A stretch of DNA of 63,394 nucleotides, filler included, from Globobulimina sp. (lineage: Eukaryota): NCBI GenBank assembly GCA_003354225.1. It is 41 parts of 41 records of this genome, joined end to end, with 100 filler letters (N's around TTAATTAATTAA, not from the genome) between each part and the next. Parts side by side here need not be neighbours in the genome. Positions count along the whole stretch, not along the records: positions 27,894 to 29,342 come from PIVH01016501.1; 40 more parts are not named here. The stretch is one strand, 5' to 3'. The number at the start of each line of letters is the position of its first letter. Within the stretch, counting starts at the first letter, position 1. The translations under genes and the position numbers were made by a program. This document shows, piece by piece, positions 1,451-30,890 of this stretch. The notes under the pieces were generated by a model, which saw nothing but the letters and a program-made list of their open reading frames with translations, searched no databases and was not told where the DNA came from.

Positions 1451-1550
1451 NNNNNNNNNNNNNNNNNNNNNNNNNNNNNNNNNNNNNNNNNNNNTTAATT
1501 AATTAANNNNNNNNNNNNNNNNNNNNNNNNNNNNNNNNNNNNNNNNNNNN
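1451..1550. other. Artificial contig linker (first of 40 identical linkers, spaced ~1.55 kb)
   Basis: 44 N + TTAATTAATTAA (stops in all six frames) + 44 N. Contig lengths decrease monotonically from 1450 to 1447 bp. Confidence 0.99.
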
Positions 1551-2391
1551 ACTCACTTAATATGTTAATAACCCACCATCTCACAAATATATCATACGAT
1601 TTACAAACAGATCCAATATCTGCACAATGCAATGCTATGCCCATCACATCTTTTTTATGTCCATTCATTACATCATTTGGGTCACAAATTGTATGTAAAT
1701 AATCAAGTCGAGCAATATGACTTTGATGGCTTTCCGGAGCTGTTCCTAATATCATATCATTCATATTTTCGGCGATATATTTTGTTTCTAACTTTGTAAA
1801 ATTCTCCAAAAATCCATTCCATTTTTTGTCAGCTAACACTTGCAAGCTTTCGTTTGAATGCATATATTCCAATAAAGGAGTTTTCTCCTTATATTTGATA
1901 GCTATTTCATGGTTTGTTTCGAGCAAAAAAGCTGAATTAAAACCCGGATGTTTATAATCATGGCATGCTGCACTTAATAAAATAATCAGTTTATCCAAAT
2001 CGGAAATAATTAAGTTACTTTTGATCAAAAAATGAAAGGAATTGAGCATAACATCTGTTGCATGTAAGGATGAATGATATGGAATGTCTAAATATCCCGA
2101 TTCTATTTTATGCAGAAATAGTAACAATTTATCTTGTGATACATTTAGCTTTTTATATAGATCCAATTGCAGGAACAAATAATTAGCGCAGATTAATAAT
2201 GTGTGCCGCCTGCAAATTTCATGTAGTTTAAAAATATTCCAATTTGTAAAATCTGCCGTCGACATCATACCATCAGTCAACAACTCAGTTACTTTTCTCA
2301 TTAAAGAAAACCGGAAAAATTCAACTAATTCAACTGGTTTCTCATTGTCCTCTTTCAGTTTGTCATTGCCATCGTACTCTAAAGGTCGCAT
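1551..2391 (-). CDS. Class I cyclic-nucleotide phosphodiesterase catalytic domain, partial
   Basis: YHSSLHATDV, HDYKHPGFNS, LEYMH and LHCADIG motifs. Confidence 0.93.
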
Positions 2392-2788
2392 TTTTCGTGT
2401 TGAAGATGATGATAGTTATGATTTAACCACTGATTGGGTGCAGTTGTTGGTAATGTTGCAGTCTTTGTAGTGTTTAAATAGTTGCTGTTGGTTGTACAGT
2501 ACGTCTTGGTGTCGCAAATTTAATTTAGCTAATGCTATAATTGTCTTATTACTGTATCATAATTCGTTAAATTTATCACACGCCGTCATTGGTATGTACG
2601 TGTTTCAGCTGCATCAGAGTCAGATAGTTCTATTAAATAGTACTGAAATGATGAGCTTGTTGGCGTTTACCAGCCATCCAATATTTTTGTTGCAGTCTTC
2701 TGTCATGATTAACCTCTGAGTTATCTTAAAAAACTAAAATAAAAACAAGCTGTGTCGGACTGCACATCACTGCACTTCTTCTTTTAAT

Positions 2789-3000
2789 ATGGGTTGTTGT
2801 ACCTCCAAACCACATGACACAGAATTCCAAGCCACACAATCACACAGCACATTTTCACAAATCACAACCACACAAAATGGTACAAATTCAGCATCGCCAC
2901 TTGATTTTAGCACTAAAATAGACAATAAGGAGTCCAAAAAAAAAGAAACAGCAAAAGAAAATGATATCGCTAGCAAAGATGATTGGGATCTGGATGCATC
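2789..3000 (+). CDS. Putative N-myristoylated/palmitoylated protein, 3' partial
   Basis: MGCCTS N-terminus. Confidence 0.6.
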
Positions 3001-3100
3001 NNNNNNNNNNNNNNNNNNNNNNNNNNNNNNNNNNNNNNNNNNNNTTAATTAATTAANNNNNNNNNNNNNNNNNNNNNNNNNNNNNNNNNNNNNNNNNNNN

Positions 3101-3926
3101 ATATATTTATCGTTTTTGTTTTGATCGATGCTCCAAATATCAATCTCCAAAATATATAAAATCAAATAAAATATTTGAGCAATTCCTATCATTGATATTG
3201 ACCACACATAACGTGTTACACGCGTATAACAACTGCATTTTGTATTTCTTTGATAGAGACCAATGGATAAATCAAGTGGCTGCGCAATTGGTAATTTACA
3301 AATACATAATAATGATACAATAATATTCAAAGCAATTGGTGCACAATGTACATATGATAATATCTGAAGATTTATCACTGAAATATCAGCAATTTCAATC
3401 AATACGGATACCACAATAACAATCAACAAGTATACTGCAGATAATATTAATAAGGCATATATAAATTTTTTTAAACCATGTTTCCTTACACATAATTTTG
3501 AGGCAAAACCAAATAAATCAGCAAATAAAGCCAACCAACACGATAATATTAAACAATCGATCGTAAAATTTAACCATAATACAACATATGAACCAAGTAA
3601 ACGTACAATATTTTCGATATTATCGTTGCGAACAAATGGTTGATGAATTTTTATTTCATGCAATACAATTAATAATACCATTGCTGCATTTGTCAATAAT
3701 GTAATCCAATATATTGGAGTTAATGCCGCGACAATTCCTCTCTATTTAAATATAAATAATGTAATCAATCGCATATAAAAAATGCATTTAATACCTGGCG
3801 ACCATATGTTAAACAGTTGGATAATAATTTTAGGGTCGAGTAAACTAATAAAATCCAGAAAGCAATTCCTATCACAACTAAGCAAATATTAAAATATGAA
3901 GGAACATTTGTGTCGATCGAAACCAT
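3101..3926 (-). CDS. Multi-pass (7TM-like) membrane protein, 3' partial (exons 3926-3795, 3741->3101)
   Basis: ATG at 3926. A phase-0 GT-AG intron 3794-3742 joins into the 3696 ORF. About six hydrophobic helices. Confidence 0.7.
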
Positions 3927-4146
3927 TGTGGATCAAAGAATGTTTTTTAAAAAGATAGCCCCCTTGTAAACCATTATCATGGTTCTCGTTTGTTGGAAAC
4001 GGAAGAGAAATATCCAGTATACATTGGTTGGCTTATATACCTGAATATGTCGTTAAATGGTTGGTCCCAATCACTTGCAAGTCGCAAAGGGTTATCGAAA
4101 TTATGGTTTATTATGCATATTTGACAATGATTACAACAAAAATGGA

Positions 4147-4550
4147 TCAGGTCCCAAACTTATTTTTAATTTCATTATAAATCTCATTTGATAGTTTTAT
4201 ATTGTTATTATTTTTAGCTCCAGAAAGTAACGCCACCCACATTGTTTTGCCATTATTCGTATCTTGATATCGATCCTCTGTATTTAAACATTTATACCTT
4301 TGATATTCCGATATTATATTTTTTGCTTCTTTTATTGCGCCATTTTTTGAAAAACAAGCAACTAAACTCGTTACAACATATGAATCATATTTAATTTTGT
4401 TATTTTTTATATCATTTTCCCATATTTTATGTGCAAATACAACATCATTACAGTGACCAATTGCATTAATTAATAAAATATAAAATTTACGATCAACATA
4501 TTTATAAATATTATTTGCCATAAACATACTATAAAATTGTTTCAGTTTCT
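4147..4550 (-). CDS. Pentatricopeptide-repeat protein with an E-motif-like segment, partial
   Basis: PPR-like units (LLINAIGHC; VTSLVACFSKNGAIKEAKNII) followed by MWVALLSGA...N..L, as in plant PLS-E proteins. Confidence 0.75.
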
Positions 4551-4653
4551 NNNNNNNNNNNNNNNNNNNNNNNNNNNNNNNNNNNNNNNNNNNNTTAATT
4601 AATTAANNNNNNNNNNNNNNNNNNNNNNNNNNNNNNNNNNNNNNNNNNNNAAG

Positions 4654-6100
4654 TTATAAGTTATCAACCAATTTATTTATATTTTGTACGCATTTCTGTA
4701 AAATCCTTTCTTGCTGAAATTTAATTTTATATTTAACTTTGGCGTTATTCATTTTCCTCAATGGTTTATTCACTCTTTTCGCGATTTCTAATTTTGAACA
4801 CATAATTTTTTGAACAGTTCGAACTTGTCTATTTACATCACTTTGTCTCAAATTAATTAAAAACTTATTATGTTGCCGTGAATCATCATACATAGTATGC
4901 ACACCAACAAAAAATAACTCCGTGGTCAATTCAAATAAAACAAAATCTAATCTATGAATTTGCAATCTCTCCGATAATATATCCAATGTGTCATCCCTAT
5001 GAAATATCGCTTTGTAACAATTAACGTCATGTTTGGCAAAAAAAAGGAAAAAAGTTAATATCTTATTCACCAAATTTAAATGCGGCAAACTACGATTACT
5101 ATTTCGCAACACCTTATATAATGAACCAATAATGTTATGTTCCACAATCCGATTGCTTATATTTGGTACAATTTTTAGTAAACAACATAATGTATCACAC
5201 GATTCCGACACACCGTATAATGTTCGCGATTTGCTCAATTTTGATAAGGCATCTTCTAATAAATAATTTACAGTCAATTCTTTTTTCCAATTCTTATGTG
5301 CATTGTGCACTTTACGTACAATCTTTTGTAATTCCCCATTCTGAGCACATTCCATCCGCAATAACTTCCCTCTCGACACAGCCTGAACCTTTATCACTTT
5401 CTCAATGTATCCAGCTTTGTTTTGTCGTTTATATTCCATATATCTCCGTTTGTACATTGCACCAACAAACCAAGACTGTATGTAACTCGCTGCATTGTTT
5501 CGCATAGCAATATATCGCCGTTTCTCATCGACCGTACTTCGGAATTTATGCATTCTCCATAAGGATACCAGAGATAACACACATTTTTTCTTACGTTGAT
5601 ATCGCATATATTTAATATATTTTTTCCTATTCATAGTCCCTTTGAACCAGGACTGGATATAAACAGTTGCCTCATTTCGTTTTCTTTGTTTCTCTTCGTG
5701 CTGATATTCAATGTAAATTCTTCGATACATTGCACCAACAAACCAAGACTGTATATAACTCGCTGCATTATTTCGCATGGCGATATATCGTCGTTTCTCA
5801 TCGACCATACTTCGAAATTTATGCATTCTCCATAAGGACAACATAGATAAAACACATTGTTTTTTGCGTTGATGTCGCATGTAATGAATATATTTTTTCC
5901 TACATATACTCCCTTTAAACCATGATTGAATACAAATACTTGCTTCGTTTCGTTGTTTCTCTTCGTGTTGATATTGAAGGTACATTCTTCGATACATTAC
6001 ACCAACAAACCATGACTGTATGTAACTCGCTGCATTATTTTGCATGGCAATATATCGTCGTTTCTCCGCAAGCTTCTTTCGAAATTTATGCATTCTCCAT
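4654..6100 (-). CDS. ASPM: Abnormal spindle (ASPM)-like protein C-terminus, 5' partial
   Basis: Multiple IQ motifs (IQSWF.G...R) followed by a HEAT/ARM-like domain with RNSNRSLPH. Confidence 0.8.
5430..6100 (-). repeat. About 2.5 tandem copies of a ~270-nt coding unit (IQ-motif block)
   Basis: MHKFR...RRYIAM.NNAASYIQSWFVG recurs about every 90 aa, with near-identical DNA. Confidence 0.85.
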
Positions 6101-6200
6101 NNNNNNNNNNNNNNNNNNNNNNNNNNNNNNNNNNNNNNNNNNNNTTAATTAATTAANNNNNNNNNNNNNNNNNNNNNNNNNNNNNNNNNNNNNNNNNNNN

Positions 6201-6710
6201 TTCCAAGCATAGAATAGCAAAAGGTAATCTATCCATAATATGTTTGTGCCACTGCAAGGCGATGAGATGTGGGTTGGTGTGGTTAATACAAAAACATATG
6301 GCATTACAAATGAGATTGAAAAGAAATTTGGTTCATTGTTATATTATGGAGGCAGAGAAATGAGTATAACGAATAACGTAACATACAACAAATGGGATAA
6401 TGGGAAGGGTGCAATTCATGCTTTTGGCCAAGTACTTAAAACTGTGGAGTATTATAGGTCTGGCGATTGGATCTCATTCTTAATTCATTTAAATGAAAAT
6501 GCGCCCAATTGTAAAATTTATAAAAACGGAAATAAAATATTTGATATTCCTGCATTGCCATTCACATCAAAAGGACCTATTATTAATAATCTCTCACAAA
6601 ATAGAAACGACGACCATGGCATATATTTCTGTGTTGTTGTCGATTATTCAATGGATAGTTTTGTTGTGGAAGAGGTTATTTACACGCAAAGTGTTGTTAA
6701 TGTGACATGA
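6201..6710 (+). CDS. SPRY/B30.2-like domain protein, 5' partial
   Basis: MWVGV...LLYYG...Y.SGDWISF...KIYKNG pattern. Confidence 0.6.
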
Positions 6711-6791
6711 TTCATTTATTTTTAATGTTTTTTTTCAGTGAATATAAAAACAGTGTATGAATTTACAAATCATCATATTCACAATTCACAA

Positions 6792-7472
6792 TCATTGTTT
6801 TTTATTGTCAAATTGCAAATTATTGGTCAAAAACTGTTGATTTTGTGTTTGTTTGCGTTTATCAAATTCATCGTTTGGTAAATGATTCCCGCCAACAATA
6901 TTATGTCCAGTTAAATTTGTCTCATTCTGCTTCTCATTCTGTTTATTTTCCGTTTTAAATTGATTAATATCGACATCTTTAATTTTTTGTGCAATCCAAA
7001 AAGGGCAATTATAATGCATTTGAAGCATGGAATTTTGAGATTGCGCATAACCACATTTAACCGCATCATTTTTGGTGTTTTCATAAATTATTTTAAATCC
7101 AAATATCGGCAGTAAATTCATAATCTCTTCGTATGTTAACTCAATGGATGGGTCGGGATTAGATTCATCCTCAAAATGATACAACAACGGTCCCAAATTT
7201 ATCACATATCCGTTCAGTCGTAAACACTGATTAAAGATTGACAAATATTGCAATATGTTATGTGCAGTATCAATAAAAAAGCAGCTAACAATTACATCCC
7301 AGGCTAAATGATGCTGTTTCCGCGCATAAATCTCACAAAAATCGCCGGCTACCATGGATAATAAGTCCTTTCTCTCCAAATCTGATATTTGGTGCATCAA
7401 TGCCGACGGTGAGACATCGGGAATCTTACAATAATGCAATTGCTGCTTAACCGACCATTGATTGGTTGCTTG
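6792..7472 (-). CDS. CARNMT1: Carnosine N-methyltransferase (N2227 family), 5' truncated at a chimeric junction
   Basis: IPDVSP, SMVAGDFCEIY, SCFFIDTAHNI, INLGPLLYHF and SIELTYEE motifs. Confidence 0.88.
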   Translation of the reverse strand, partial: QATNQWSVKQQLHYCKIPDVSPSALMHQISDLERKDLLSMVAGDFCEIYARKQHHLAWDVIVSCFFIDTAHNILQYLSIFNQCLRLNGYVINLGPLLYHFEDESNPDPSIELTYEEIMNLLPIFGFKIIYENTKNDAVKCGYAQSQNSMLQMHYNCPFWIAQKIKDVDINQFKTENKQNEKQNETNLTGHNIVGGNHLPNDEFDKRKQTQNQQFLTNNLQFDNKKQ

Positions 7473-7474
7473 AC

Positions 7475-7650
7475 TTTCTGGAGTGGAAGTCGAACAGGAG
7501 TCCGCAGACCTCGCGTTCGAATTCTACGCACTGGCCTGGGTGACGACCCATTATCTCGCGCTTCATCCCGAGCGAGTGCTGAAGCTGAACAGAATGCTCG
7601 AAGCCCAGGCAAACGGGGCGAGCTGGGAAGATGCCTACGACGCCGCCTTC
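7475..7650 (+). CDS. GC-rich bacterial ORF fragment (DUF1570-like FYAxxWxxxHYL motif)
   Basis: Abrupt GC rise and bacterial codon usage: FYALAWVTTHYL...AYDAAF. Confidence 0.55.
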
Positions 7651-8019
7651 NNNNNNNNNNNNNNNNNNNNNNNNNNNNNNNNNNNNNNNNNNNNTTAATT
7701 AATTAANNNNNNNNNNNNNNNNNNNNNNNNNNNNNNNNNNNNNNNNNNNNCTTGTTTTCTGTATACTGTGTTTAGCGCAATTTCGCCTCTCGTGTTTGTC
7801 CATTGTGGCGTTTGGTGTGTTTTTTGCAAGAAAAGAAAACATTTCAAATACCAATAAAAACCATTTCAACAGCACTTTGCCAAATTACTTTTGGTTAATA
7901 TTGCTTGTTGAATTTATATATTGTTAATGTATCATAGAGGACATTCAAATCAATCAATACGATACAATAATCAACATAACAAGTTACCTATTTGCAAGTA
8001 CATTTGTATATAAATCACT

Positions 8020-9200
8020 GTGTCACTAATTACAAATTATGGATCCAAATTACGGCAAACCTTGTTAATACATAGCATGAAGAGAATAAATGCACATAAA
8101 TTTGGCAATGTGTCATTATCGCCTCACTCCTATAATAATCTATCATTATCTCCTCGTTCTCCTCGTTCCTCTTCGCCCACATTGTCCTACGAGTTGGCGT
8201 ACCAAACACAATTAACTGCCAACAGAAAAAACGGCTCTGCGAAAACACCCAAACAAATGGAATTTATGAGCAAAATAACAGAGGAAAGCAACCACCATTT
8301 AGTGAACCATATAATACAGCTGACCCCCACACCGCCGCCACCACCAACCCCACCAACGCATTGCTCGCCAATTGCAAAAAACACACCAACTGCCACAATG
8401 GACAAACACGAGAGGCGAAATTGCGCTAAACACAGTATACAGAAAACAAGGCATTACTCAGACGAGATCACCGTCGATCCGTACTACAAATGGACAGAAA
8501 ACAGTGCCCAAATACACCAACAGACGCAGCCACCAAAAATGATCAACTCCACTTCAAACAGATCCTATCGGAAGTACAAAACTCGCAAAACACACAAGAA
8601 ACACAAAAAACACAAACATTATAATAGCGACTCGCATCACATATTAGCACAGCCACATAAACACAAATCTGCCTCCAAATCTAAACGGAAAAAACACAGA
8701 GACCGCGCCCATTCCACAAGCACAGTGTTGTCAGAAAACAACAGCACCATAGCCATCACCTACATGCATGACGGCGACGATGCGTATTATTATGCGTATG
8801 AATCGAAACAATCGTCACAAGATTCCTATGCGGCAAAGCTAAAAACGCAGAAACATAATCGGCCGCAGACCGCCAGAGATCACAAACGGACATCCAAACA
8901 CAACAAAATACGCTCCAACGGCACCGTAATTACCCCCAACAAAGCACACGGACACAATCATTACAAATCGCAATCGGATGGCCACAAAATCCATTCGCAG
9001 ACACAGACAAAGTCCAAAACGAAGGGGAAGTCGAAATTGGTGAAAAAAAAGAGCAAAAAGTCCAATTTCAATCAAGAAGCTATGGATTATATGTCTGCCG
9101 AGCAACAATTGTTGTATTTATACGATTACACATCGGGCAATGTGTTGAACCGTAGCAGTGCCTCAGTCACCAGCAGCAATACACAGACACGGACACGAAC
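8020..9200 (+). CDS. His/Lys/Ser-rich low-complexity hypothetical protein, partial
   Basis: About 390 open codons, no recognisable domain. Confidence 0.6.
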
Positions 9201-9300
9201 NNNNNNNNNNNNNNNNNNNNNNNNNNNNNNNNNNNNNNNNNNNNTTAATTAATTAANNNNNNNNNNNNNNNNNNNNNNNNNNNNNNNNNNNNNNNNNNNN

Positions 9301-9692
9301 TAAAACAAGAAATAAATAATTTATTGGATGATAAAAAAGAAATGGAATTAGAAATCAATGAATTAAGAGAAGAGAATCAGAGATTAAATGGGAATAATTT
9401 GGATTATGCGTTATGGCGGGAATGGGATTCAAAAAAAGTGTTTTATTTTATTATGAATACAGCGAATGACGGCTCCTTAAAGCCATACCAAGAAAGCATA
9501 AAAAAAGAGATATTTGAGTCAGAATATACTGGCAAAGACTTAGCAGAAATTGAATTTTATCATATTCAATCAATGGGAATTAAAAAAATCAGTGCAAGAA
9601 ATGCTGTCTATAAAGCAATTCAAAAACTTATTCAAAACAAACCGCAAATGAATGAAGGAATTGCTTCAAATGAGCCAACTCCATACTTATGA
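9301..9692 (+). CDS. Coiled-coil + SAM-like domain protein C-terminus
   Basis: W.EW...V..FI ... YTGKDL ... MGIK ... IQKL. Same family as 12446-13063. Confidence 0.6.
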
Positions 9693-10850
9693 TTTTCTTT
9701 TTTTTTTAATTTTAATCTGTAATAATTATTATATCCTTGCACTTCATTACTAAGCTTGACATAGGAAGCGAGCACTTATCCAACATTCAAAGATTACAAT
9801 TGGCGTAGACTTTAATTATTCATTTTGAATATAAATGGTTATTGTCTGGTTGCTGATTTTATTGTGTCAACACTAGAATTGATTGCAGCCGACGTTGCAT
9901 TGGCTACTTTGTTCCCAGTGGTGATTAGATCGTCTCATATCTGTAATTTTAAATGAGTTTAATATATTTTATATCTTGCATATGACACATATTCAATTGC
10001 ACATAATCTGTTGCAAAATATCTCTACGTTGGACTTTGAAATGCATTTAAATTGCTCTATAAACAATGAGCAGTACACAAGATATCCACACAGCAAATAT
10101 TATTTTGTTGATTTGCATTGGACATTATAGGGATTCTTATTTGAACATAGTAGCAAGGCGTTCATATGACAAAAAAATCTAAACATCCAATATTATATTA
10201 TTGATGCATCTAACATAAATATTTAAACAATTTTATCATATTTTCCCGAGATTTGAGAAGGTAGATCTTTATGTATTGCTTTTTCCATTTGTATACGACT
10301 GACTATATATTTTGAATGCATACAAATGGAAAGCAATAATATAAACACGCAGAAAACATGGAGAAAAAACACAACAAACAAAATAACACAACAAACACAT
10401 GCAAATGTCATGTTATAATGGCAATGACAGAATGACTAACTGTTTTGCTACATTTACTAAATTCGTTCATTACTAATTGCGTAAATAGTATTGTTTAAAA
10501 TGGGTGCACTGAGCTGAACACGTTCCCTTAGACGTAAATCAATCAGTATTGAATTGCGAGTTTGCGACTGAAATAAATTAATAATTATATGCGTTGAATA
10601 TGCTTGCAAATGCGTTGTGAATATATTACTGATGACATTGTGGCAAATGCGTTGAATATGCTTGCAAAGCATGCCGCCAATAATATAATATCACCGTTGT
10701 TATTTACAAATAATATTTAATGTTTCAGCGATACCAATCCATTCATTGGANNNNNNNNNNNNNNNNNNNNNNNNNNNNNNNNNNNNNNNNNNNNTTAATT
10801 AATTAANNNNNNNNNNNNNNNNNNNNNNNNNNNNNNNNNNNNNNNNNNNN

Positions 10851-12300
10851 CATGCATAAATGCGTGTGCGCACTGGTGAGTGCATGACCACACGCATGCA
10901 TTCGCCCATACGCACATGACTACACGCAAGTGTGCGCATACACAGTTGTATACGCATATGTGTGTGTGCATTCATGCGTGCATGCATGCTCGTTTGATGA
11001 ATCATGCCAATGTGTGTATGTCTGTATGCGTGCATTGTTGCGCAGGCGCATATGTGCACGCATGTGTAATCACATGCGTGTATGTGCATGTGCGTGTGCG
11101 TGCGCATTGGTAGTAACCACAAGTTGCATATGTATGTATGTGTGCTCACGCGTATGCGCATGCACCTACACACATGCACGCATGCGCACATGCATGCACA
11201 TGCACGCACATGAATTACGGCATGCGCTTATATTCAAACACACATGCATACACGCACATTCCTAAGTGCACATATGCATCGTCGCACATGCATACTTACA
11301 ACGTGGTGTGCACGCGCACTCACACACATCCACACATGCGTTCATGGGCATGCGCATACATGCATACGATCATACACAAGCCCACATGCACACACACATG
11401 CACACTTGCACACACATGTGCATACACACACATGCACCGTTGTATGTACACATACACCTGTGCCCGCGCCCGCGCATGCGCACACACACACATTAGCGCG
11501 CTCTTGCATTCATATACATATATTCATGCACGCGCACACATGAGTACATATGTACACATGTGTACACTGCCATGCCTACACACATTCATACACATGCACA
11601 CGCAGACGCACGTGCACAACAGTGCATGCGTACATTCATGCATACGTGCGTGCGTGCATGCATACATTGCTGTACGCATACAGTGTTGCATACGCACACT
11701 TGCATAAGTACTTGCTTGCGCATGCGCACACACGTCCGTACATGCATGTTCATGCACATACCATGCACACATGCGCACGCATGCGCACGCATGCTACTGC
11801 ACAGATGCATGCGCACAACATGCAGGTGTGCGCGCGTTCATGCATACCACGCACCCATACACGCGCGTGATATTACACTGCGCGCCAAATCACTAATATA
11901 TATATATGTATGTATATACATAGATATATATATATATATGTACTTTACGAGCGTGCATACATGTATGCACAGGTGTGCACACACATATGCGTGCATGCAC
12001 ACGCACACGCACACACATATGATCATGCGCATACACACATACGCATGTGTGAATGCATGCACGCATACACCTATATGTATAACAAACCATCACGCACATG
12101 CGCATGCAATCACACACATTCGCACGCGTTTATAATACGTTCATCAATGCTAACATGTATGCGCGCACACGCGTGCGCTCATACTTGCATATCAGCACAT
12201 GCATGTGCGCACGCGAATCGATGCGATCGTATGTTCAATCAAACACTTGCATATGCGTGCGTGAGTGCACCACTCAACAATGCATATACACATGCATGAA
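10851..12300. repeat. Degenerate alternating purine-pyrimidine (CA/TG/CG/TA) low-complexity tract filling the whole contig
   Basis: Near-continuous RY alternation (CATGCACACGCATGTGTG...). Confidence 0.92.
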
Positions 12301-12445
12301 NNNNNNNNNNNNNNNNNNNNNNNNNNNNNNNNNNNNNNNNNNNNTTAATTAATTAANNNNNNNNNNNNNNNNNNNNNNNNNNNNNNNNNNNNNNNNNNNN
12401 TGTTCAAAAGCATTTATATCTGTTATACAATTATATAATCATTTT

Positions 12446-13063
12446 ATGGAAGACAATAAGCAGTATATTGATAAATTGCAATCTAAATTTGATAAAATAT
12501 GGAATACATTCGAGTTCCAATGGATGATATGGACTGCTCGAGATATAATTGCTTGGTTCAAATATAAAACAATAAAAATGAAAACAAAAGAAATGGATTG
12601 GGAAAGGATAGAAAAACAATTAGAATCCAGAAATATTACAGGTAAATCGTTGAAAAAATTTAATGATTTAACTTTTGAATTAATTGGAATGGATGATTTT
12701 GATGTTGTTACTCATTTAGTCTCCGGAATTGAGTTATTGATCATGCAAAACAATGGTGATAAAAAGAGCGGAATTGCAGTTATTCCAAAAACTTATTTGT
12801 GTCCAATTACAAAACAAATTATGCGAGATCCAGTGATTGCATTTGATGGTCATAGTTATGATAGAAATCCGATTGAAAGTTATTTAAAAATTCATAAAAA
12901 ATCGCCAATTACTGGTGCCAATGCAGATTATATCATTGTATTTCCAAATAATAAACTTAAGACAGAAATACAATCATTTATTGTCACAAATAACATTGAT
13001 TTGGAGAAACAACATGAATCAATGAATTCGAATGAAGGAAAGAATGACACTGACTATGTTTGA
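12446..13063 (+). CDS. SAM-like + U-box domain protein, probably 5' partial
   Basis: IPKTYLCPITKQIMRDPVIAFDGHSYDR..I..YL....SPIT...FPN..LK is a U-box. Confidence 0.88.
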   Translation: MEDNKQYIDKLQSKFDKIWNTFEFQWMIWTARDIIAWFKYKTIKMKTKEMDWERIEKQLESRNITGKSLKKFNDLTFELIGMDDFDVVTHLVSGIELLIMQNNGDKKSGIAVIPKTYLCPITKQIMRDPVIAFDGHSYDRNPIESYLKIHKKSPITGANADYIIVFPNNKLKTEIQSFIVTNNIDLEKQHESMNSNEGKNDTDYV

Positions 13064-13169
13064 ATGAATGTGTGTGTGATGTATTTAGTGTACAGTTCAA
13101 GCATTCGAAACGGTGTAATTTACTGTTTTCGAAACGGTACTAATTTTAAAGTTCACTGGATTTTGTTGC

Positions 13170-13850
13170 ATGCTCATGAGCTGGAGACCAAAAAAGTATG
13201 AACAAGTAGTCCAATTACAAAGATCAAAACAATATAACTATATCATTTATGGCAGTTTAAATGTATCATCACAATTATTAACTGTTTCTGTGACAGATAC
13301 ACTAACCCAAAAGGAATGGGAACAGCAATTTGCTCAAAGTCATTTCCCAAATCTTACTATTAATTTCATTGGCAAAACATTAATTGATGCAATTCAACCA
13401 TTGACAGTTAAAAAACAATGCAAAATTACAATATTTTCAATTTGGTGTTATTTAACCATTGATAATGGAGCAGCTTTACCATCATTTGCCTTGCCATTAA
13501 AAAATGCTCCCTCACATTCTACAAAACCCAACAAGAATAGAACAAGACTCAAGAGAGCAATGACTGCCGCAACACACAATAACTTAATACCTCCACCAGT
13601 CACATTATCAATGTTAGTGACTTACAGCAAATTAAATTACTGTGATGAAAAGAAGCAAAAACACAGTAAAGTTGCACTATTTGAACCAAAAGAACCAGCC
13701 ATTCCAAGGCCAAAATCAAAGAGTGTAGTAACGTTAACTGCCACCATTACACCCAATCCAGCTCCAATTTTAACTCCAACTACCACCAAAACGCCAGGTT
13801 TACCACCACCGCCACCAAGAAAAGGGAGCACCAAATACAAAATCACAAAT
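13170..13850 (+). CDS. Hypothetical protein with a beta-rich N-domain (weakly XRCC4/CCDC61-head-like) and a Pro-rich tail, partial
   Basis: LTVSVTDTLTQKEWEQQF; poly-Pro. The domain call is tentative. Confidence 0.5.
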
Positions 13851-14069
13851 NNNNNNNNNNNNNNNNNNNNNNNNNNNNNNNNNNNNNNNNNNNNTTAATT
13901 AATTAANNNNNNNNNNNNNNNNNNNNNNNNNNNNNNNNNNNNNNNNNNNNCTTCTGCTTCTTATTATGCAGTTAAATTATGTGACGAGAAAGGTGTATCA
14001 AGTTTGACCGCAATGAAATGGGCTTTTCAAACTTTTCTACTTGGTTACCCTTCCTTGAGACTTATTATT

Positions 14070-15199
14070 GCCTTCAAACCCATCAAATACCGCAAGGCCG
14101 AGGCCTGTGTGGTTGAGCAAGTCCGTGTGATCAAGACCAGGCAGAATGAGTACAGCGAGCAAGAACCGGTGATTGCGACCTTAAAATTGCGCTATAATCG
14201 TTTTCCAATCATCGGTGATAAATTCGCGTCGCGCGCCGGACAGAAAGGGACATTGGCGATGCTCTGGCCGCAGAACGATATGCCCTTCACTGAGAATGGC
14301 ATTGTGCCGGATTTGATCATCAATCCACATGCTTTTCCCTCGCGAATGACCATTGGAATGTTGCTGGAATCGATGGCGTCGAAATGCGGCGCATTGAATG
14401 GCGAGTTTTATGACTCGACGCCGTTTAAGTTTGATGAAGAGAACCGTGCGGTGGACCATTTTGGGCGGAAGTTGTTGCAAAATGGGTATAGTTATTATGG
14501 CGCGGAATCGATGTATTGTGGTACTACGGGCGTGGCGATGAAGGCTGATATTTATGTCGGATTGGTATACTATCAACGACTGAGGCATATGATCTCCGAC
14601 AAATATCAAGTTTTGTATTGTATTTGTATGCTTTTATAGCCATTAAAATGTGTATCAAATATCCGAATTATGAATGTGGATAATTTTTGATTTACCATAT
14701 GGCTTAAATTATTTTTTTAGCGTAAACTGAATCTTGCACCAATTTGCTGCATTTTATTTTGTATGATGGTGAATTAAGTCAGTTTTTGTACATTATTTAG
14801 GTTCGCGGCGGGCAGGGCCCAGTGAATAATTTAACAAAGCAGCCGTTGAAAGGGAGGAAGCGGAGAGGAGGTATCCGTTTGGGCGAAATGGAGAGAGATT
14901 CGATAATATCGCATGGCTGTGCTTATTTGTTACATGACCGCTTGTTCGATAATAGCGATGGAGAGATTCGATGGATGTGTAAGAAATGTGGCACTTTTTT
15001 GACTGTGTTTCTCAATCTAAAACAGGGCAAGCAATGGTGTAAGATCTGTAATAATGCGGATCAACTGACGCGGATTAATGTGCCTCATGTTTTGTCGTAT
15101 TTGTCGAATGAATTGGCCGCTATGAATGTCAAATTGATATTAAAAACTAAAGAAAGTCAAGCTGCCCTGAATACGACTAATCGAATTGCATTGACTTAA
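14070..15199 (+). CDS. RPA2: RNA polymerase I second-largest subunit C-terminus (intron 14610-14800)
   Basis: GDKFASRAGQKG, NPHAFPSRMTIG, YYQRLRHMISDKYQ|VR, GGIRLGEMERD, CxxC...CxxC, ELAAMNVK. Confidence 0.93.
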
Positions 15200-15618
15200 T
15201 TCGTTTTAAATTGTGATTGATTTGTTGTATTTTTTTTCTAAATGTTGAATTATAATTATATTGTAACATTCATTAATTTCTTACCGTCATTACATTTATT
15301 ACCGTCGTTTGAAACCAATATATATATAAAAAAGAAAAGAAAGAATAAAAATTACACTAAAACTAGTTTCTGATAACTAACTTTTTATATAAACAATAAA
15401 NNNNNNNNNNNNNNNNNNNNNNNNNNNNNNNNNNNNNNNNNNNNTTAATTAATTAANNNNNNNNNNNNNNNNNNNNNNNNNNNNNNNNNNNNNNNNNNNN
15501 ATTTTCTGATCTACACGCGGATAGAAATAAACCTAAAGAAAGCAGCAACTGTGGAACTGCCATATGCATTGAAGTGATTGAACTGATTGTAGTTCGAAAA
15601 CAGTAATAGTACGAAACA

Positions 15619-16702
15619 ATGACAAATGTACACTCGTGGAGTATTGGTAGCAGTTGTTTAATTTTTTCGCGTACCAAAGAGAAATGGTTTGAAGGTGAGA
15701 TAATCGGAATGAACGGGTCCAACAATGATGAATGGATGACTGTGGAATATAATAAACATACAAAACTTATTCAACGCAATTGTAAATTTGTAAAACCAAT
15801 TCCATTCGATCATCCATCCCAATTCACACTCGGATCAAAATGTAAAATATATTCAGATATTACCTTATCATGGTGCTACGGAACAATTATTCATATATTT
15901 AATGACAAACAAGGCGAATGGCTTAAGGTTAAATATAATGATACCAATGATAATGAAAACAGTGCACATAAAATATGTGAGATACAAAGATATTCAAATG
16001 ATATCAGATTGATACCAAAACAAGGTAGACAATAAAACAATTTATGTATACAATTTATATCTTTATATGTACATTTACACAGAGTCAGACGAGAAGAAGT
16101 CAGCCAAAGCAAATGCGAGAGATTTGGGGATATTTACAGATATAAAACATATTTTGATCAATGAAGAAACGTTAAAAGCACGAATTATCGAATTGGGGAA
16201 TGAGATAACAGCATATTATGTGGGTGATAATTACAAGAATGACGAATTAATTTGTATTGCAATATTAAATGGAGGATTTTTGTTTTGTGCTGATTTAATC
16301 CGCCATATAAAAATTGCACATCGTGTCGAATTTATGAAAGTAAAATCTTATTCAGGCTCAAAACAATCTGATAATATTAAGGTATTATTAGATATAAATT
16401 GTATGCTCGACAATAAAAATGTTTTAATCATTGAAGATTTGATTGACACTGGAAATACAATGATGTGGTTGCTTCAATATTTGAAATCAAAAAAAAATGC
16501 AAAATCTATTAAAATTGCATGCTTATTACAGAAAAAAACTAACCTTTTAAGCAAAGATTTTAATGTAAAGATTGATTGGATTGGCTTTCCAAATGTTGCC
16601 AATGAATGGATTGTTGGATATGGCATGGATTATAATGATCATTATAGACATTTGCCATATATTGCGTCATTGAAGGAGAGTGTGTATGAAAATGATCAGT
16701 AG
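15619..16702 (+). CDS. HPRT: Hypoxanthine-guanine phosphoribosyltransferase with two N-terminal Tudor/Agenet-like repeats (exons 15619-16024, 16083-16702)
   Basis: ILNGGFLFCADL, VLIIEDLIDTGNT and WIVGYGMDY motifs. A phase-1 GT-AG intron 16025-16082 joins the two ORFs. Confidence 0.85.
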
Positions 16703-17050
16703 ATCAATATCAATATCAATGGTGGCATGGTGTTGTGTGTTGTGTGTAAAATGTAATGTGTGTACATGTTTTTTGCTTCTTTCTTTTCCTGTTACTTTAC
16801 ATGCAGTGTTATTATTGACCGTTGAATTTAAATCATTGACTGCGAGTTGAATGCACAATAAATATTTATGACAGATCATTTATTAATATTCGTGATCAAA
16901 TGAGTTATTTTGAACAATTTGATACGGCCCATAAAAACCATGGTATATATNNNNNNNNNNNNNNNNNNNNNNNNNNNNNNNNNNNNNNNNNNNNTTAATT
17001 AATTAANNNNNNNNNNNNNNNNNNNNNNNNNNNNNNNNNNNNNNNNNNNN

Positions 17051-18012
17051 ATTTCATACAATTTTTTTGGGTGCATAGTCATTCTGAATCAAACATGAAT
17101 GATTTGGTCGATATGCTTGCAAAATGTGCAGCAGGTACAGTAAAATTATGTTTTACGGAAGAAATTAAAAATAAAAGCGTTGAATGTGAGAATTTAAATG
17201 GCAAACAATCAAAAGATAAATGCAAGCACAATAGCGACCATTTAAACGACGAGAAAAAGTATGAAATGGATTTATTTGTTAATCATAATGAACATATCTT
17301 GGCCAATGATCGTAAAACATGGCTAAACCCCAACAACTTGATCGCATATAAAACGATTAAGTCCGAGATTAAATATCTAGCAAATAAATATGACGAACGT
17401 TTTTGGAATGAGAATAAATACGGATTATATTATAGCACATATCCGTATGGTTGGGGTAGGCATTATTACGAATTAAAAATTAAGTGGGAACCTAAAAAGT
17501 ATGCACAGGTAATCCCATATTTATCGATGCTGGAGAACGATATTCGTGTCATGTGTATGGCAGATCAATTGCCATTAAATACGTATATGGCTTTTAAGGC
17601 CAATAATTACGACTTCCTCCCTTATTGCAATCAGCATAGTGATTGCCATATGCACTTACACGATGAGACAATTATGCACTATTTTAGTGAGTGCCAAGCT
17701 GATCACTACATCGCTCCACGTAAGAAATTAATGGACACAGTCAAGCAAATATATGATGACTATAATAATGATGTAACAAATGATAGAAACAAAAGAGATT
17801 TCGATATAAATGGCGGGATAAACCATTTACAAAAATACTTATTTTTCCCATCATTTAAGCTTGAAATCAAAGAAAGAGTCAAAATAATCAAAGCGATAGT
17901 TTTATATATCAAATCTACGCGGCATGATCTAATATTAATGTATAAAAATGGCAAATGCAAAAAAGTGAATGATAAACCAATGGAATTTGATATTAATGAA
18001 TTATTTTTGTGA
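17051..18012 (+). mobile_element. Non-LTR retrotransposon ORF2 3' end (RNase H C-terminus + CCHC-type zinc finger)
   Basis: WVHSHS...NDLVDMLAK resembles the RNase H WVxxH..GNExAD.LAK motif. C..C...ETIMHYFSEC finger. A/T-rich sequence downstream. Confidence 0.7.
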
Positions 18013-18907
18013 TATAATCTAAATCACGTTATTTTTATTTTATTTTTAATAAATTAGTTGATTGGCTGCAGTAAATTAGCAAATATCAAACAAACAATCA
18101 ATAAAAAACTAGTAAAATATACAAAAAAAAATAAATAAAAAACAAAACAAAAATCGATATATGTAAATAAAAAAAAAACAAACAAAAATTACCTCTGATG
18201 ACCTTATTTTTATTGAGATAATATAAATATTAATTTTGGTATTTCCGGCAAGTTTGGTGTGTTTAACACCATATCAATGTTAAATCTATTAATTCTTTAA
18301 TATTTTCAATTATTATTTACCATTACATTCCAATTTTTTCTCTTTATTAACCAGTTACCAATTTTTTCCATATCCATATTAACCATATCCTATAATGTAG
18401 AATTTTAATTTTATTCCAGTTACTTTTAGTTATTCGACTTATTTTTGTAATAAAAATATCTGTATTATGAGCAAATCATTTATGCGGTGGATTTTATATN
18501 NNNNNNNNNNNNNNNNNNNNNNNNNNNNNNNNNNNNNNNNNNNTTAATTAATTAANNNNNNNNNNNNNNNNNNNNNNNNNNNNNNNNNNNNNNNNNNNNT
18601 GTGGATGCATTTCGCAAAAATACTGCTCATCCACCAATGGATCGCCACCTTCATTCTCAACGCCGGAATTTTCAAAGTCATTTCTTGTTTTTATCATTAT
18701 TTGATACAATGACACCATGATGAATGTGTGATTGTGGATTGTCAGTTTCTTCTGGATCAGAATTATACACAATAGCAGCACCAATACATATATTGTGCAT
18801 GACACCGCGTAGTTGATGGTTCTGGTGTTTCAGTTTTGTTGTATTCAGTACGTAGAGTTTTTTTAGTGAACAACATTCATTGTCGACCAAGTATACCTCA
18901 CATTCAA

Positions 18908-20048
18908 ATGATAATGTCTATTTATCTGCTGACGTTATCTGGTTTATACACTCAAAGAGCACTCGGAACACGTATGCAGAATATATTACCACTCAAACAT
19001 GCAGAACAACAACGTTAATAACACCCACACAATGAATGCAGAATCAGACTGGGACACAACCGCCCTGTGGGAAGATAATTTTAATACATTCGATACCACG
19101 TATTGGACGAAGGGTAGAAATGAGGCTAGCTCCCCAAAGCATATTCAATGGTATAGTGATAGTAACGTCGTTATTGAAAGTGGAAAGTATGTAGATTTAT
19201 ATGATATACTTTTGTATACGAATCACATAACCTTGTATTTAATTATCAAAGGTTAGTTATCAAAACCCATTATGGACAAGGTAACAAACATAATAATGAG
19301 TCCGCTGATTGGGCATCGGGCGCCATCACCACTGAAGGCAAGAGAACAATGCTGCCACCTGTGAAAATCGAAGTCGTCGCCAAATTGCCTGTGGCTAATC
19401 TGAATGACGGCAATGGCAATTATTTACCTTGTTTACATACTGCGATATGGTTGCAAAGGGACACTGTTTACCCCACTGGGAGTACAGATGGCAGTACAGA
19501 TTGGACTGACCCAGTCTCAGGGCGTCCTCTTTGTTACCAAGAATATGATATGATGGAACAATGGGATGGCACATGGGCCAATTCACGAGTTAGTGCTGCT
19601 TATCATTTTAACAATGCCGGTGGCTCACAATATGCTACGTGTGCAGCAGCCTCAGCTACATATACACCATCAGACGGAAATTTGTATAAACATTACGAAA
19701 ATACACCAGCGCCACCCTACGGAAGGTAGATGGAATCCTGGATCCGGAAGAGACCCGGATCTATACGATCATACGGACGCAACTATTGTCAACACTTTTA
19801 GCATTGATTATGTTGGCGTATTCAAGCCGGTGGGGTGGACTGCTGCAACAGCAATGTCGAGTCCAACTGATCATTTTTGGTCATTATCAAACGGTGGTAA
19901 AGATTCGTATGTGTTTAATATTTATCAAATGATTGAAATGAATGTATTGGTGTCAGCATTGGTGACAATGGTTATGTTGTGTTGTTTTGTGTGTATTTTG
20001 AAGAGATGTTATTGGGAAAAGAAAGGATATGCTGAGGTTAAATTTGAA
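18908..20048 (+). CDS. Secreted, membrane-anchored GH16 beta-glucanase-like protein (introns 18972-19041, 19187-19251; frame break near 19720)
   Basis: Signal peptide, WEDNF, SGAITT, AIWL, catalytic EYDMME (ExDxxE), FSIDYV.VF and a C-terminal TM helix. Confidence 0.78.
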
Positions 20049-27689: not shown

Positions 27690-28104
27690 TTGTAAATTAT
27701 TTTCGAGTCAATGTTTATGATATCTGATATCGAAATATGTCATGTGTTTTCATTTTTGTTTGGCAAATATGTTTTATTGTATCCTAACATTTTNNNNNNN
27801 NNNNNNNNNNNNNNNNNNNNNNNNNNNNNNNNNNNNNTTAATTAATTAANNNNNNNNNNNNNNNNNNNNNNNNNNNNNNNNNNNNNNNNNNNNTTTCATG
27901 TCTCTAATGTCTCCACTTGTCTTTTAGATTGGCGAACCTAAATATGATTCTCATTGATTATTTTCGTCTAAAAGTCTCTACGACGAAACAGAAATCATAT
28001 TTTGGACAATCTAAAATCGACTCGTCCCGATTTATCAAGTATCGACTTTTTTTGAAATCAAGTAAAAAGCAATGGATATGGATATGGAAAATGAGCAGAA
28101 AAAT

Positions 28105-28181
28105 GGTGACCTAGCTCAATTGGCAGAGCATTGGGTTGAATGGCAGACCAATTGGATGTAGGTTCGAATCCTACGGTGAGA
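28105..28181 (+). ncRNA. tRNA-like sequence (pseudo-tRNA or SINE head)
   Basis: A-box/D-arm TAGCTCAATTGGCAGAGC and a perfect T-arm GTAGG-TTCGAAT-CCTAC. The anticodon loop is enlarged and the acceptor stem mispaired. Confidence 0.65.
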
Positions 28182-28280
28182 GGAATGGAATGGAACGAAA
28201 CGCAAACGGGCGAAATCCCCAGAACTAATTATTTGAGCACATAAATGATAAATGGGCGAAATCCCCAGAGCTAAAGAAAT

Positions 28281-28573
28281 GCCGTCATATATTAAGGCGG
28301 CGAGAATTGGATGCAATGCCGTCATGTATTAAGGCGGTGATAATGAGAGAAGAAAAGCCGTCATATATTAAGGCGGCGATATGAGAGAAGGAATGCCGTC
28401 ATATATTAAGGCGGTGATATTAAATGAGAGAAGAAAAGCTGTCATATATTAAGACGGCGATAATGAGAGAAGAATCCGCCATATATTAAGGCGGTGAGAA
28501 TTGGATGCAATGCCGTCACGTATTAAGGTGGCGAGAACAAGAGAAGGAATGCCGTCATATATTAAGGCGGCGA
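28281..28573. repeat. Array of 8 hairpin repeats GCCGTCATATATTAAGGCGGYGA with 14-20-nt purine-rich linkers
   Basis: Copies at ~28281, 28318, 28357, 28395, 28438, 28475, 28512 and 28551. Confidence 0.92.
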
Positions 28574-28975
28574 GAATGAAAAGCAACTTATAATAGTACG
28601 AGTATCGACAATGAGCAGATTGAACTTCAAACATCTTTAAGTGTTCCTAAATTAAATAAAGATGTTTCCAAATTATATGACAGTGATGTTGTAGCATGAC
28701 AGTCTGGTGATGTTGTAGCATGACAAAAAATATTTTGTATAACTCGGAGTTAATACACATTATTTTTTGTACATATTTAGTATACATTATTGTTTTGTTT
28801 TGTTTTGTTTGATATCATATGATATGCCAGATATGGTGATATATTTTGTTTGATGTGTTGATATATTTGTTTGATATGGTGATATTTTTAAATATTAGAT
28901 ATAAACGATCCGAGTAAAAACAGAATATATAAGTTTCCCTCGACTTCGTCTCCCAATAAGTTATATCCAAGATAC

Positions 28976-29096
28976 AATTGACTTTTAGGTTCACACTTCT
29001 AAACACTTCTTTTTAAAGTTTTTTGCATGGGCGTGATCGGGGCGCTGCGCCTTTGAGTGAAGAAGTGTTTAGAAGTGTGAACCTAAAAAGTCAATT
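28976..29096. repeat. ~36-bp inverted repeat (MITE-like) around a ~50-bp core
   Basis: AATTGACTTTTAGGTTCACACTTCTAAACACTTCTT ... AAGAAGTGTTTAGAAGTGTGAACCTAAAAAGTCAATT. Confidence 0.85.
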
Positions 29097-29140: not shown

Positions 29141-29342
29141 GAAAATAGGTTAATAATAAAATGTTAAAGGTAACATTTAACTTTTTGCTTTTCAGTTTGA
29201 AATTACTGTTTTTTACTGTAAAATCTTTGAATTTACAGTTTTTTACAGATTATTCAAAATAAAAACATTGAAAGTCAAAATTGAATTGTTAAAGGTTGTG
29301 TTTCATCGGGAACCATTAACATTTTATTATTAACCTATTTTC
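29141..29342. repeat. ~27-bp perfect inverted repeat (MITE-like)
   Basis: GAAAATAGGTTAATAATAAAATGTTAA ... TTAACATTTTATTATTAACCTATTTTC. Confidence 0.8.
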
Positions 29343-29442: not shown

Positions 29443-30244
29443 AGTTGCTTCCGTTGTCGCGAATGGTGAATGTCTGTGCCGTACTGTCATAATCGACTTT
29501 ATAAGTGATGCTGCTGCCGGACTGACTTGAAGCAACATCCATGGCATTTCTGACGGCGGTTGCCAGTTCATCATGAGTATATGTTCCATCCGGAATTATT
29601 GCGGTTATTTCGCTGCCGGGAGTGCCGTTTGTATATTCAATAAAGTTGATTTTATTGTTTGAGCTGTTTACCGTTACATCGGTGTACCTAAAAACATCGG
29701 AGCCGTCATCACCTGATGTAACACGGGAAATTTGTCCTGTTTTTACTGCAAACAGGTCTGTGTTGCCGGAGTAAGTTGCTTCAGTTGGATTGTCTTCATC
29801 ATCCAGATCAAACGGCATGGTGTCGGTCTTTGTGCCACTGAAAATGAATTGTCCGTTTACACTGGTATTTCCAAAGGTTATCATCTGCCTCAGGATGCCG
29901 TCGACCCTTACGGCAGCAACTTCACGCTGGGCTATGGTGTAAGTGCCGTTCGCAAGCTGTTCACTTAGCACCATTGCTTCGGATATCAGATTTTTTGCAC
30001 TGTCAAGAGCGGTCTCTCCGGCGTTGAGCCACGTCCGCCCCGTAGAAATATTTCGACCCAGCTGGTCAATGTTGGACAGGTTCGCCCTGATATTCAAAAC
30101 CTGGGCCAGTCCGACAGGGTCGTCTGAAAGCGAATTGATGCGTTTCCCGGATGCGATAACTTCATTTGTAGACGCCAGCCCTTCCAGGGTCTTGCCCAGC
30201 TCGAACTGGGCGGTTTCAAAAATTGTTTTGTTGGTAACGCGCAT
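29443..30244 (-). CDS. flgL: Bacterial flagellar hook-associated protein 3, 3' partial
   Basis: MRVT...SGKRINSLSDDPVG...E.AL...NG.FIFSGTKTDT.PF. Lies directly downstream of flgK. Confidence 0.95.
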
Positions 30245-30271
30245 TGCTAATACCCCATTTTATAGTAAATC

Positions 30272-30365
30272 AGTCGCGAGTCATGAGTCGCGAGTGCATG
30301 GTATTCTGTCAATTTTAAATAAGATAAACACCTTATTTCGGACTCCAGACTCTCGACTCTCGACT
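30272..30365. repeat. Inverted heptamer-repeat stem-loop in the flgK-flgL spacer
   Basis: AGTCGCG AGTCATG AGTCGCG AGT ... ACTCCAG ACTCTCG ACTCTCG ACT. Confidence 0.65.
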
Positions 30366-30382
30366 TTCCACTCATTCGTCTT

Positions 30383-30890
30383 TTATCTCGCGGCAATCAG
30401 CGTTGCCAGCATCTCATCCGCAACTGTCAGAAGTTTTGCGGCAACAGAAAACGCATGCTGGTATTTCATCAAATTTACCATTTCCTCATCAAGGGAAACA
30501 GCTGAAATCGCGTCCCTCTGTTTTGTGACCTGATTAACCAGAGCTTCGCTGAAACTTTTGGTGGAAGAAATATTCAGGGCCTTCAGCCCCATTTTCCCGA
30601 CCATTGTGTTGTAATACCCGTCAACCGTAGAGTATAAATTGTTTGAAACCGCGTCATTCCCTCTGTCAAAAATCCATTGTGAAAAATTTTGCGTTGAATG
30701 CTGTATGTCGGCAATGGCCAATGCATTCCGGTTATCGCCAACGCCGTAATCGCCGCTGTCCGCATCTATTTTCGCGGCTGCAATGTAATTTCTGGTGTCA
30801 AGAAGACTGTTGACTTCTATACTCATGGCGTCCGTACCGGAAAAAAACGTATTTATTGCCAGTGCCGCCGCAAGTCCCGATTCCTGGGCC
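30383..30890 (-). CDS. flgK: Bacterial flagellar hook-associated protein 1, 5' partial
   Basis: GDNRNALAIA ... RDAISAVSLDEEMVNLMKYQHAFSVAAKLLTVADEM. Confidence 0.95.

Follow-up and report, generated by a model that had tools for sequence, protein, structure and literature searches.

A tRNA-like module and a hairpin array as inner parts of a dispersed, modular repeat in a probable foraminiferan genome

Introduction

What is a tRNA-like sequence that is followed by a row of eight similar hairpins: a gene for a structured RNA, a SINE, or a part of something larger? Such an arrangement stands at positions 28105-28573 of the window, a stretch of 63,394 nt from the assembly GCA_003354225.1 of Globobulimina sp., and a first reading made from the letters alone (the sequence-only reading) had taken it for a structurally conserved multi-hairpin ncRNA or a SINE with a 5' tRNA head. 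The window consists of 41 contigs of 1447-1450 nt and the spacers between them, and the true neighbourhood of the locus is the contig at 27894-29342 alone. Set beside its relatives, the locus is a single copy, truncated on the right, of a dispersed and modular non-coding repeat in a probable foraminiferan nuclear genome. Head and hairpins are inner parts of this repeat, and nothing here marks a gene for a working RNA. That the copies belong to a dispersed repeat family is almost certain.

Foraminiferan repeats are barely described, and a literature search at title and abstract level, with most subscription journals outside its scope, found no description of a SINE or tRNA-like repeat for foraminifera. 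An abundant family in which tRNA-like modules are combined with hairpin minisatellites and inverted ends is worth knowing for annotation, since it yields false tRNA calls and false structured-RNA calls.

Host, relatives and sequencing runs

Other contigs of the window encode eukaryotic proteins, for example a myosin tail, a phosphodiesterase and a G-beta-like protein. The best two matches of a phosphoribosyltransferase on another of these contigs (68% and 57% identity) are proteins labelled Bolivina argentea and Elphidium margaritaceum, both foraminifera, and the assembly is therefore mostly foraminiferan; the Bolivina argentea match clusters with Nonionella stella. Judged by this majority, and by relatives of the repeat that adjoin eukaryotic genes, the contig of the locus is probably foraminiferan as well. 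Its sole stop-to-stop frame of at least 70 aa has no Pfam match. Elsewhere in the window, a bacterial contig with a flagellin-type gene (29443-30890) lies amid the mostly eukaryotic assembly, and a single open frame at 55761-57206 reads as a deoxynucleoside-kinase-like stretch followed by an LTR-type integrase zinc finger and core.

Relatives of the locus came from pattern searches. L001 and L002 are metagenome records found by a two-hairpin pattern; L003 was found by a one-hairpin pattern among prokaryote genomes and is a eukaryotic contig binned in a bacterial assembly (G001), and L004 duplicates it. Three of the four head-plus-array loci (L001-L003) were thus found with array patterns, and the linkage that they display is not a fair sample. 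Small contigs of G001 look eukaryotic (repeats, a histone H3-like end) for all their binning into a bacterial assembly; positions 1-270 of L003 hold, by eye, the end of a histone H3-like gene with a sub-threshold Rfam histone stem-loop match. Eight sequencing runs were considered, none of them recorded as RNA and their kind unrecorded, and four were compared with the contig at 80% likeness.

Table 1. Features of the repeat copy on the contig, in window positions.
Feature	Position	Strand	Basis
Upstream part of the repeat	27894..28104	+	Identity to L001 and L003 from the contig's first base
Long branched hairpin within the upstream part	27918..28016	+	-21.3 kcal/mol; also in L001, L002 and L003
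tRNA-like module (head X)	28105..28181	+	Rfam RF00005; seven-copy alignment and pair counts
A box	28112..28123	+	Sequence; invariant in 7/7 head copies
B box	28161..28171	+	Sequence; unchanged in 6/7 head copies, altered in L007
GGAAT-type purine-rich short spacer behind the head	28182..28203	+	Sequence; a similar one behind 7/7 aligned heads
Two GGGCGAAATCCC module copies, 46 nt apart	28204..28274	+	Repeat-family analysis; 1-3 copies in L001, L002, L003 and L007
Minisatellite of eight 21-nt imperfect inverted repeats with 16-22-nt purine-rich linkers	28281..28571	+	Tandem Repeats Finder; repeat families
Right junction	28572..28591	+	Likeness to relatives ends at about 28591

A tRNA-derived module with intact boxes

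In an Rfam scan of the contig, tRNA is the sole family above a gathering score, with a match to RF00005 at 28109-28177 that reaches 34.3 bits against a gathering score of 29. SINEBase requires of a tRNA-derived SINE an identity of 60% or more with a tRNA species across 60 nt (PMC3531059, in the part drawn on here); the match at hand is a covariance-model match above the gathering score over 69 nt. The D and T arms are intact, the acceptor stem is partly broken (4 of 7 pairs, read from the sequence) and the anticodon loop is enlarged to 11 nt, so that the unit was correctly described at the outset as tRNA-like, with intact A and B boxes and degenerate acceptor and anticodon arms. The two boxes were identified against the usual consensus, the A box being an element of a type 2 Pol III promoter.

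A working tRNA gene was considered for the window head and is ruled out by the acceptor stem, the anticodon loop and the lack of an ARAGORN call, this program having called no tRNA anywhere in the window. The 7-bp acceptor stem of a working tRNA is absent: among seven head copies, the three outer pairs form in 0, 2 and 2. The anticodon insert varies from 3 to 15 nt across the same copies. A purine is the rule at position 37 of tRNAs; in the window head, removal of an intron after position 37 does not restore a 7-nt loop, and position 37 would be U. No isotype can be assigned, since the D-arm spacing gives GAA and ARAGORN an undetermined anticodon for L001. The source of the module was probably an intron-bearing tRNA gene, because the variable insert sits at the place of tRNA introns. 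The window copy bears two private changes, each of which breaks stems of the head.

The core of the head is better kept than its surroundings. Over 68 columns, 65-68 positions are identical (96-100%), as against 90-93% in the upstream DNA (six pairs among four copies of the same type), and L003 and L006 agree at 67 of 68 columns though their upstream DNA is unrelated. The copy pairs are not independent, and the excess hints at a constraint that may act on the promoter or on the cloverleaf. Two-sided changes are found at none of 21 pairs in the seven heads, a count of low power among copies that are close kin.

The repeat begins upstream and ends at a microhomology

How far does the repeat extend beyond the head? 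The expectation of a family with a tRNA-derived, Pol III-type module held, and the placing of that module at the 5' end of a SINE did not. Upstream of the head the window matches L001 at 188 of 200 aligned bases and L003 at 171 of 195. Because the shared sequence reaches at least 211 nt upstream, the head is internal and not 5'-terminal, and because these bases match both relatives, the family begins well before any Pol III start. The contig starts inside the repeat. Just left of the point that matches its edge, L001 and L003 have in common a terminal motif that follows a T run and is present in L002 only in part, and the motif of the window copy would sit just left of the contig edge. Both ends are missing from the window copy, the left lying off the contig and the right being cut off.

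L001 is the sole locus showing both ends. There two copies of the terminal motif form a perfect inverted pair of 21 bp on either side of 981 nt, with two opposite arrays in between, and the right end of the element abuts a third partial copy. Arm B of L001 and L003 have about 10 further common bases outside the 21-bp repeat, and therefore the true element end is not fixed. The search for target duplications that the sequence-only reading had called for came back empty in L001, over all boundary pairs within about 25 nt of both cores at this one locus; the longest flanking direct repeat is 4 nt, at unequal offsets (repeats below 3 nt not listed). A search of G001 with the terminal motif returned the copy of L003 and one match with two mismatches at control level, and nothing else. 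The two-ended element of L001 has a host frame on the minus strand as its neighbour, whose first ATG comes about 50 nt downstream of it (1872-1920), and in L002 a 36-bp-like tandem repeat array stands directly outside the partial terminal motif (803-1042).

At about 28591, where the likeness of the window ends, L001 and L003 continue into further modules. The 8 nt at 28584-28591 fit both the continuation of the repeat and a flank-side record of run X2, and the join is for this reason placed at a microhomology. Of the 396 nt of this record, 153 align with 28584-28736 and 243 other letters precede them. It represents one of two things, an allele that lacks the element at this place or a spliced RNA, the latter being possible because an AG precedes 28584 and a 38-codon frame runs from 28580. 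No simple-repeat tail is present at the right junction of the window, where the repeat joins the flank directly at 28584-28591; four ATTAG-type repeats at the end of L003 are the sole tail-like end seen. Nor is there a fixed terminator: the first T4 run behind the head comes at +629 in the window (which thus has none for 628 nt), +398 in L001, +132 in L002 and +746 in L003. L002 carries a T6 run ahead of its array; because the first T4 of this copy precedes the array, a head-plus-array transcript is not a conserved unit.

Beyond the junction the contig shows a possible last coding exon and 3' gene end (28580-28868), in which the 38-codon frame reaches its stop at about 28694-28696, with a 19-nt direct repeat at the stop; 28584-28868 is covered by pieces of X2, one of which passes into other sequence at 28584, behind an AG. 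Further on lies a foldback (MITE-like) element of 121 nt (28976-29096) whose long arms match almost perfectly (-62.6 kcal/mol); its depth is high in X1, X2 and X4, partial copies occur in G001, and it forms a family separate from the tRNA-bearing repeat. Matches to miRNA families at 28984-29087 fall below the Rfam threshold and arise from a perfect inverted repeat; they were rejected. Another foldback element, about 200 nt long and with arms of 31 nt (29141-29342), runs to the contig edge and is the deepest part of the contig in X1.

Head and array are separable modules

The order of modules is the same in L001, L002 and L003 (terminal motif, long hairpin, head, GGGCGAAATCCC, array), and their outer flanks differ. 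The sequence-only reading had named separate occurrence of head and array as an outcome that would refute it, and the further places at which they occur show just this. Searched with the element, G001 yielded 8 places, distributed over 6 contigs. The head occurs in L005 and in the closely similar L006 with upstream DNA unrelated to the window type, and behind the head of L005 about 390 nt pass without an array (L006 ends too early for judging). L007 has the head and the GGGCGAAATCCC module with no array within about 410 nt, which brings the upstream contexts of the head to at least three (window type, L005/L006, L007), and L009 starts with half a head. Arrays without head X also occur: L008 holds diverged hairpin units with other loop lengths and letters and no head match upstream, and in arm A of L001 the array stands behind the 3' half of a second tRNA-like module. 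Because head and array each occur apart, the parts are shuffled modules. The array unit itself is exchangeable, since in L009 (800-1068) the array of a different hairpin unit precedes the same downstream module as in L001.

The second tRNA-like family occurs on seven further G001 contigs (L014-L019, L021), mostly with different flanks. Its cloverleaf is conserved, with good acceptor, D and T arms, and the place of the anticodon loop holds a loop of very variable length and sequence; another member lies on the minus strand of L002 (245-345). A reading in which L001 is a single element whose second tRNA-like module was divided by an internal inversion was rejected, the acceptor ends of the two halves being mismatched.

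The sequencing runs bear on abundance. The median summed depth of X1 is 3600 across the 14 bins of the element (range 99-19258) and 13.8 across the seven bins of the flank, where two listed flank pieces match without a difference; the ratio of about 260 is one of summed contig depths and cannot be read as a copy number. Depth is of similar magnitude in the upstream part (2131-10132) and in the head (10095-19258), and numerous related records are thus present in X1 for both. Its variants include records with a different anticodon insert and one from which the GGGCGAAATCCC module is missing. Sequence from X2 and X4 matches the flank and both foldback elements beyond it but little of the repeat, missing cover proving nothing, and X6 gave only short, mostly unrelated pieces on the contig.

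Spread as DNA or through RNA

The perfect 21-bp inverted ends of L001 point to a non-autonomous DNA element, foldback/MITE-like or Helentron-like. Such an element would be moved by an enzyme encoded elsewhere, either by cut-and-paste, as in foldback/MITE-like elements, or by a rolling circle, as in Helentron/HINE-like ones. It may have taken up the tRNA-derived module, which may itself be a simple SINE-like unit and which also sits in other repeat contexts. The window copy joins its flank at an 8-nt microhomology, at which it may have been truncated. On the balance of this evidence, the family seems somewhat better read as having spread as DNA, and the whole explanation, a truncated copy of a DNA-moved non-autonomous element with a tRNA-derived module, is the one that we cautiously favour. 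Several observations count against it: the head core is better kept than the upstream DNA, something that a purely DNA-moved passenger does not need; there is a single two-ended locus, without target duplication, beside a third partial copy and with its true end not fixed; and three of the four head-plus-array loci were found with array patterns.

Could the tRNA-like part instead have travelled through RNA? In a tRNA-derived SINE-like retroposon, the head and the GGAAT spacer would be copied through Pol III RNA by a LINE and would have landed in larger repeats, which we regard as unlikely, with a real chance all the same. No likelier is the extension of this idea, by which the array would be a variable body and the truncated 3' end at the microhomology would resemble that of tailless retropseudogenes. 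The intact boxes suit it, as does a core kept at 96-100% while the anticodon insert varies from 3 to 15 nt; so do the three or more upstream contexts of the head, the seven further contigs of the second tRNA-like family with their mostly different flanks, and the microhomology at the right junction. Tailless retropseudogenes are truncated at internal positions (PMC5322556, in the part consulted), which agrees with such a junction. However, Pol III would not copy the 211 nt or more that are shared upstream of the window head, the right junction of the window has no tail, L001 has no target duplication, and the first T4 falls at four different distances.

The hairpins behave as a minisatellite

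The eight hairpin units at a 37-43-nt period that had been read by eye were recovered in full, as 21-nt units that start at 28281, 28318, 28357, 28395, 28438, 28475, 28512 and 28551 (spacings 37, 39, 38, 43, 37, 37 and 39). Tandem Repeats Finder gives a period of 37, 7.9 copies and a score of 345, far above chance, and units 1-3 and 6-8 form a higher-order duplication with 90% identity. The five arrays hold 8, 6, 6, 3 and 3 units. One loop variant is tied to one linker type, occurring in 5 of 5 units behind that linker and in 1 of 21 others, counts which among related units express shared descent and not a probability; loop variants ride with linker types as in a minisatellite. Copy number and unit subtypes vary as observed, and the array may grow and shrink by slippage or unequal exchange. 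In front of the array, the two GGGCGAAATCCC motifs are present (28208-28219 and 28254-28265), as first described, and the mini-hairpins ascribed to them are weak (-3.5 kcal/mol).

Are the hairpins nevertheless kept for their structure? Leaders of tRNA-like form that are cut by RNase P/RNase Z are found in gammaherpesvirus TMERs and in mascRNA, and a functional multi-copy Pol III RNA would be predicted to use the tRNA-like part as promoter and processing signal, releasing an RNA whose several identical stem-loops bind the same protein repeatedly. The intact boxes may allow Pol III to read head and array, and the better conservation of the head core and the lack of a T4 run for 628 nt behind the window head are in keeping with such a product. 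The head strand gives the more stable hairpins in 7 of 8 units, and with pairs confined to a span of at most 40 nt the own hairpin forms in 7 of 8 with a probability of 0.97-1.0 (unit 7 scores 0 in the common register and, taken by itself, folds in a shifted one). Yet when folding of the array is unrestricted the arms pair across units, and the own-hairpin probability drops to 0.00-0.19 for 7 of the 8. The 501-nt region as a whole folds with z = -2.1, and 2 of 100 shuffles do equally well.

Stem variants had been said mostly to keep pairing, which is true of five of the six distinct changes in the window, all transitions; the sixth, a transversion, breaks a pair, and unit 6, written before with a stem of 5 bp, has lost its outer pair. 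For five pairing-keeping transitions out of five P = 0.068, given that pairing on the window strand survives 7 of the 12 possible transitions. We pooled 26 units from five arrays, 16 of them distinct, omitting L004, which duplicates L003, and the diverged L008. Over the 16 distinct units, pairing at the inner five positions is intact in 79 of 80 cells, which favours a functional RNA, and the outer pair is broken in 5 of the 16, which does not. None of the six stem pairs shows a two-sided change in the 26 units, with low power among copies so closely related, and 445 of 500 shuffles reach the covariation score of the units; at the fifth pair T-A and C-G seem to have been exchanged, but each is a single step away from a shared T-G pair. 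Covariation, to which the sequence-only reading had looked for a decision, is therefore missing from both units and heads (0/6 and 0/21 pairs), and its structurally conserved multi-hairpin ncRNA is not borne out, the more so as arrays hold 3 to 8 units and a T6 run precedes that of L002. Heads without an array, and the two private changes by which the window copy breaks its head stems, also tell against a functional RNA, which we consider very unlikely.

That the hairpins are rolling-circle (CRESS-type) replication origins or their remnants is scarcely credible: the loose likeness of the TATTA loop in a GC-rich stem to the CRESS-type origin motif is all that speaks for it, whereas the contig's sole frame of 70 aa or more lacks a Pfam match, viral contigs gave 0 matches for three patterns (hairpin unit, head and terminal motif), and the diverged units of L008 differ in loop length and letters. 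The resemblance noted earlier found no support.

Comparison with known systems

The nearest working likeness of the DNA-moved element that we favour is to HINE/DINE-1 non-autonomous Helentrons (PMC4067079; the oyster Cg_HINE, PMC7492417) or to composite MITEs (PMC6887750), all compared here on parts of these papers. As those parts present them, HINE/DINE-1 elements resemble the repeat in their short inverted repeats near both ends beside T runs, in lacking a target duplication, and in having a variable number of central tandem repeats and a short microsatellite-like stretch (PMC4067079, PMC7492417). Non-autonomous Helentrons carry a pair of 11-15-bp subterminal inverted repeats (same sources and parts); L001, the one two-ended locus of one, has a pair with a 16-bp core plus 5 T/A, slightly above the published range, and the variable central repeats are present in all five arrays. 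Helentrons have a stem-loop between the 3' subTIR and the element's end, and T bases on both flanks. A candidate for this 3' stem-loop is a 6-bp stem 13 nt beyond one of the L001 repeats, half of which belongs to the neighbouring partial copy; none lies at the matching place in L003. The differences from HINE, within the same portions of the literature, are that no clear 7-12-bp inner inverted repeat is seen, only one of 5 bp; that the 3' palindrome is found in L001 only and may be a product of the junction; that the units measure 37-43 nt, against 140-180 nt in Cg_HINE (PMC7492417); and that the repeat carries tRNA-like modules, the word tRNA being absent from the main text of PMC4067079.

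MITE and foldback transposons such as MER6, a MITE that combines Mariner ends with a SINE (PMC6887750, in part), are likewise non-coding, with inverted ends and a captured piece of a Pol III-type repeat. Here the terminal inverted repeats are the 21-bp perfect pair of L001. MER6, in the account of that source, took up the SINE body and tail without the tRNA head, whereas here the tRNA-like part is kept. Because the 3' stem-loop and the target rule are ambiguous and any partner enzyme is hypothetical, we do not class the repeat as HINE/DINE-1 or as a composite MITE. To tRNA-derived SINEs, as partly consulted in PMC3531059, it is similar in being shorter than 1 kb (about 700 nt in the window, 981 nt in L001), in being interspersed, with differing outer flanks, and in having a tRNA-related module with A and B boxes; with the modular SINEs of molluscs (PMC4758252, also in part) it has in common that modules are swapped between families. 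As far as these accounts go, it differs in that the head is internal, the window copy has no simple-repeat tail and one copy has inverted ends.

The remaining counterpart is found among retroelements with a different promoter. Cassandra TRIMs carry a 5S Pol III promoter inside direct LTRs, and what they have in common with the repeat is a Pol III promoter kept inside a larger non-autonomous element, with conserved DNA upstream; they differ by their direct LTRs and 5S module, where the repeat has inverted ends and a tRNA-like module. If the conservation of the head core reflects a needed Pol III transcript, two normally separate ways of mobility would be linked in one element. It is conceivable, if rather unlikely, that foraminifera harbour inverted-end elements whose anticodon-less tRNA mimics are selected as Pol III promoters and as RNase P/Z signals, each copy giving a discrete multi-hairpin RNA. 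Equally speculative is the idea that this RNA would be needed by the element, for loading on the mobilising enzyme or for escaping silencing, or would have been taken up by the host, and no stronger a case can be made for calling such elements a tRNA-based, inverted-end counterpart of Cassandra. Compared with these systems, the repeat is of an ordinary kind, and its odd trait is the presence of well-kept, anticodon-less tRNA modules inside an inverted-end repeat.
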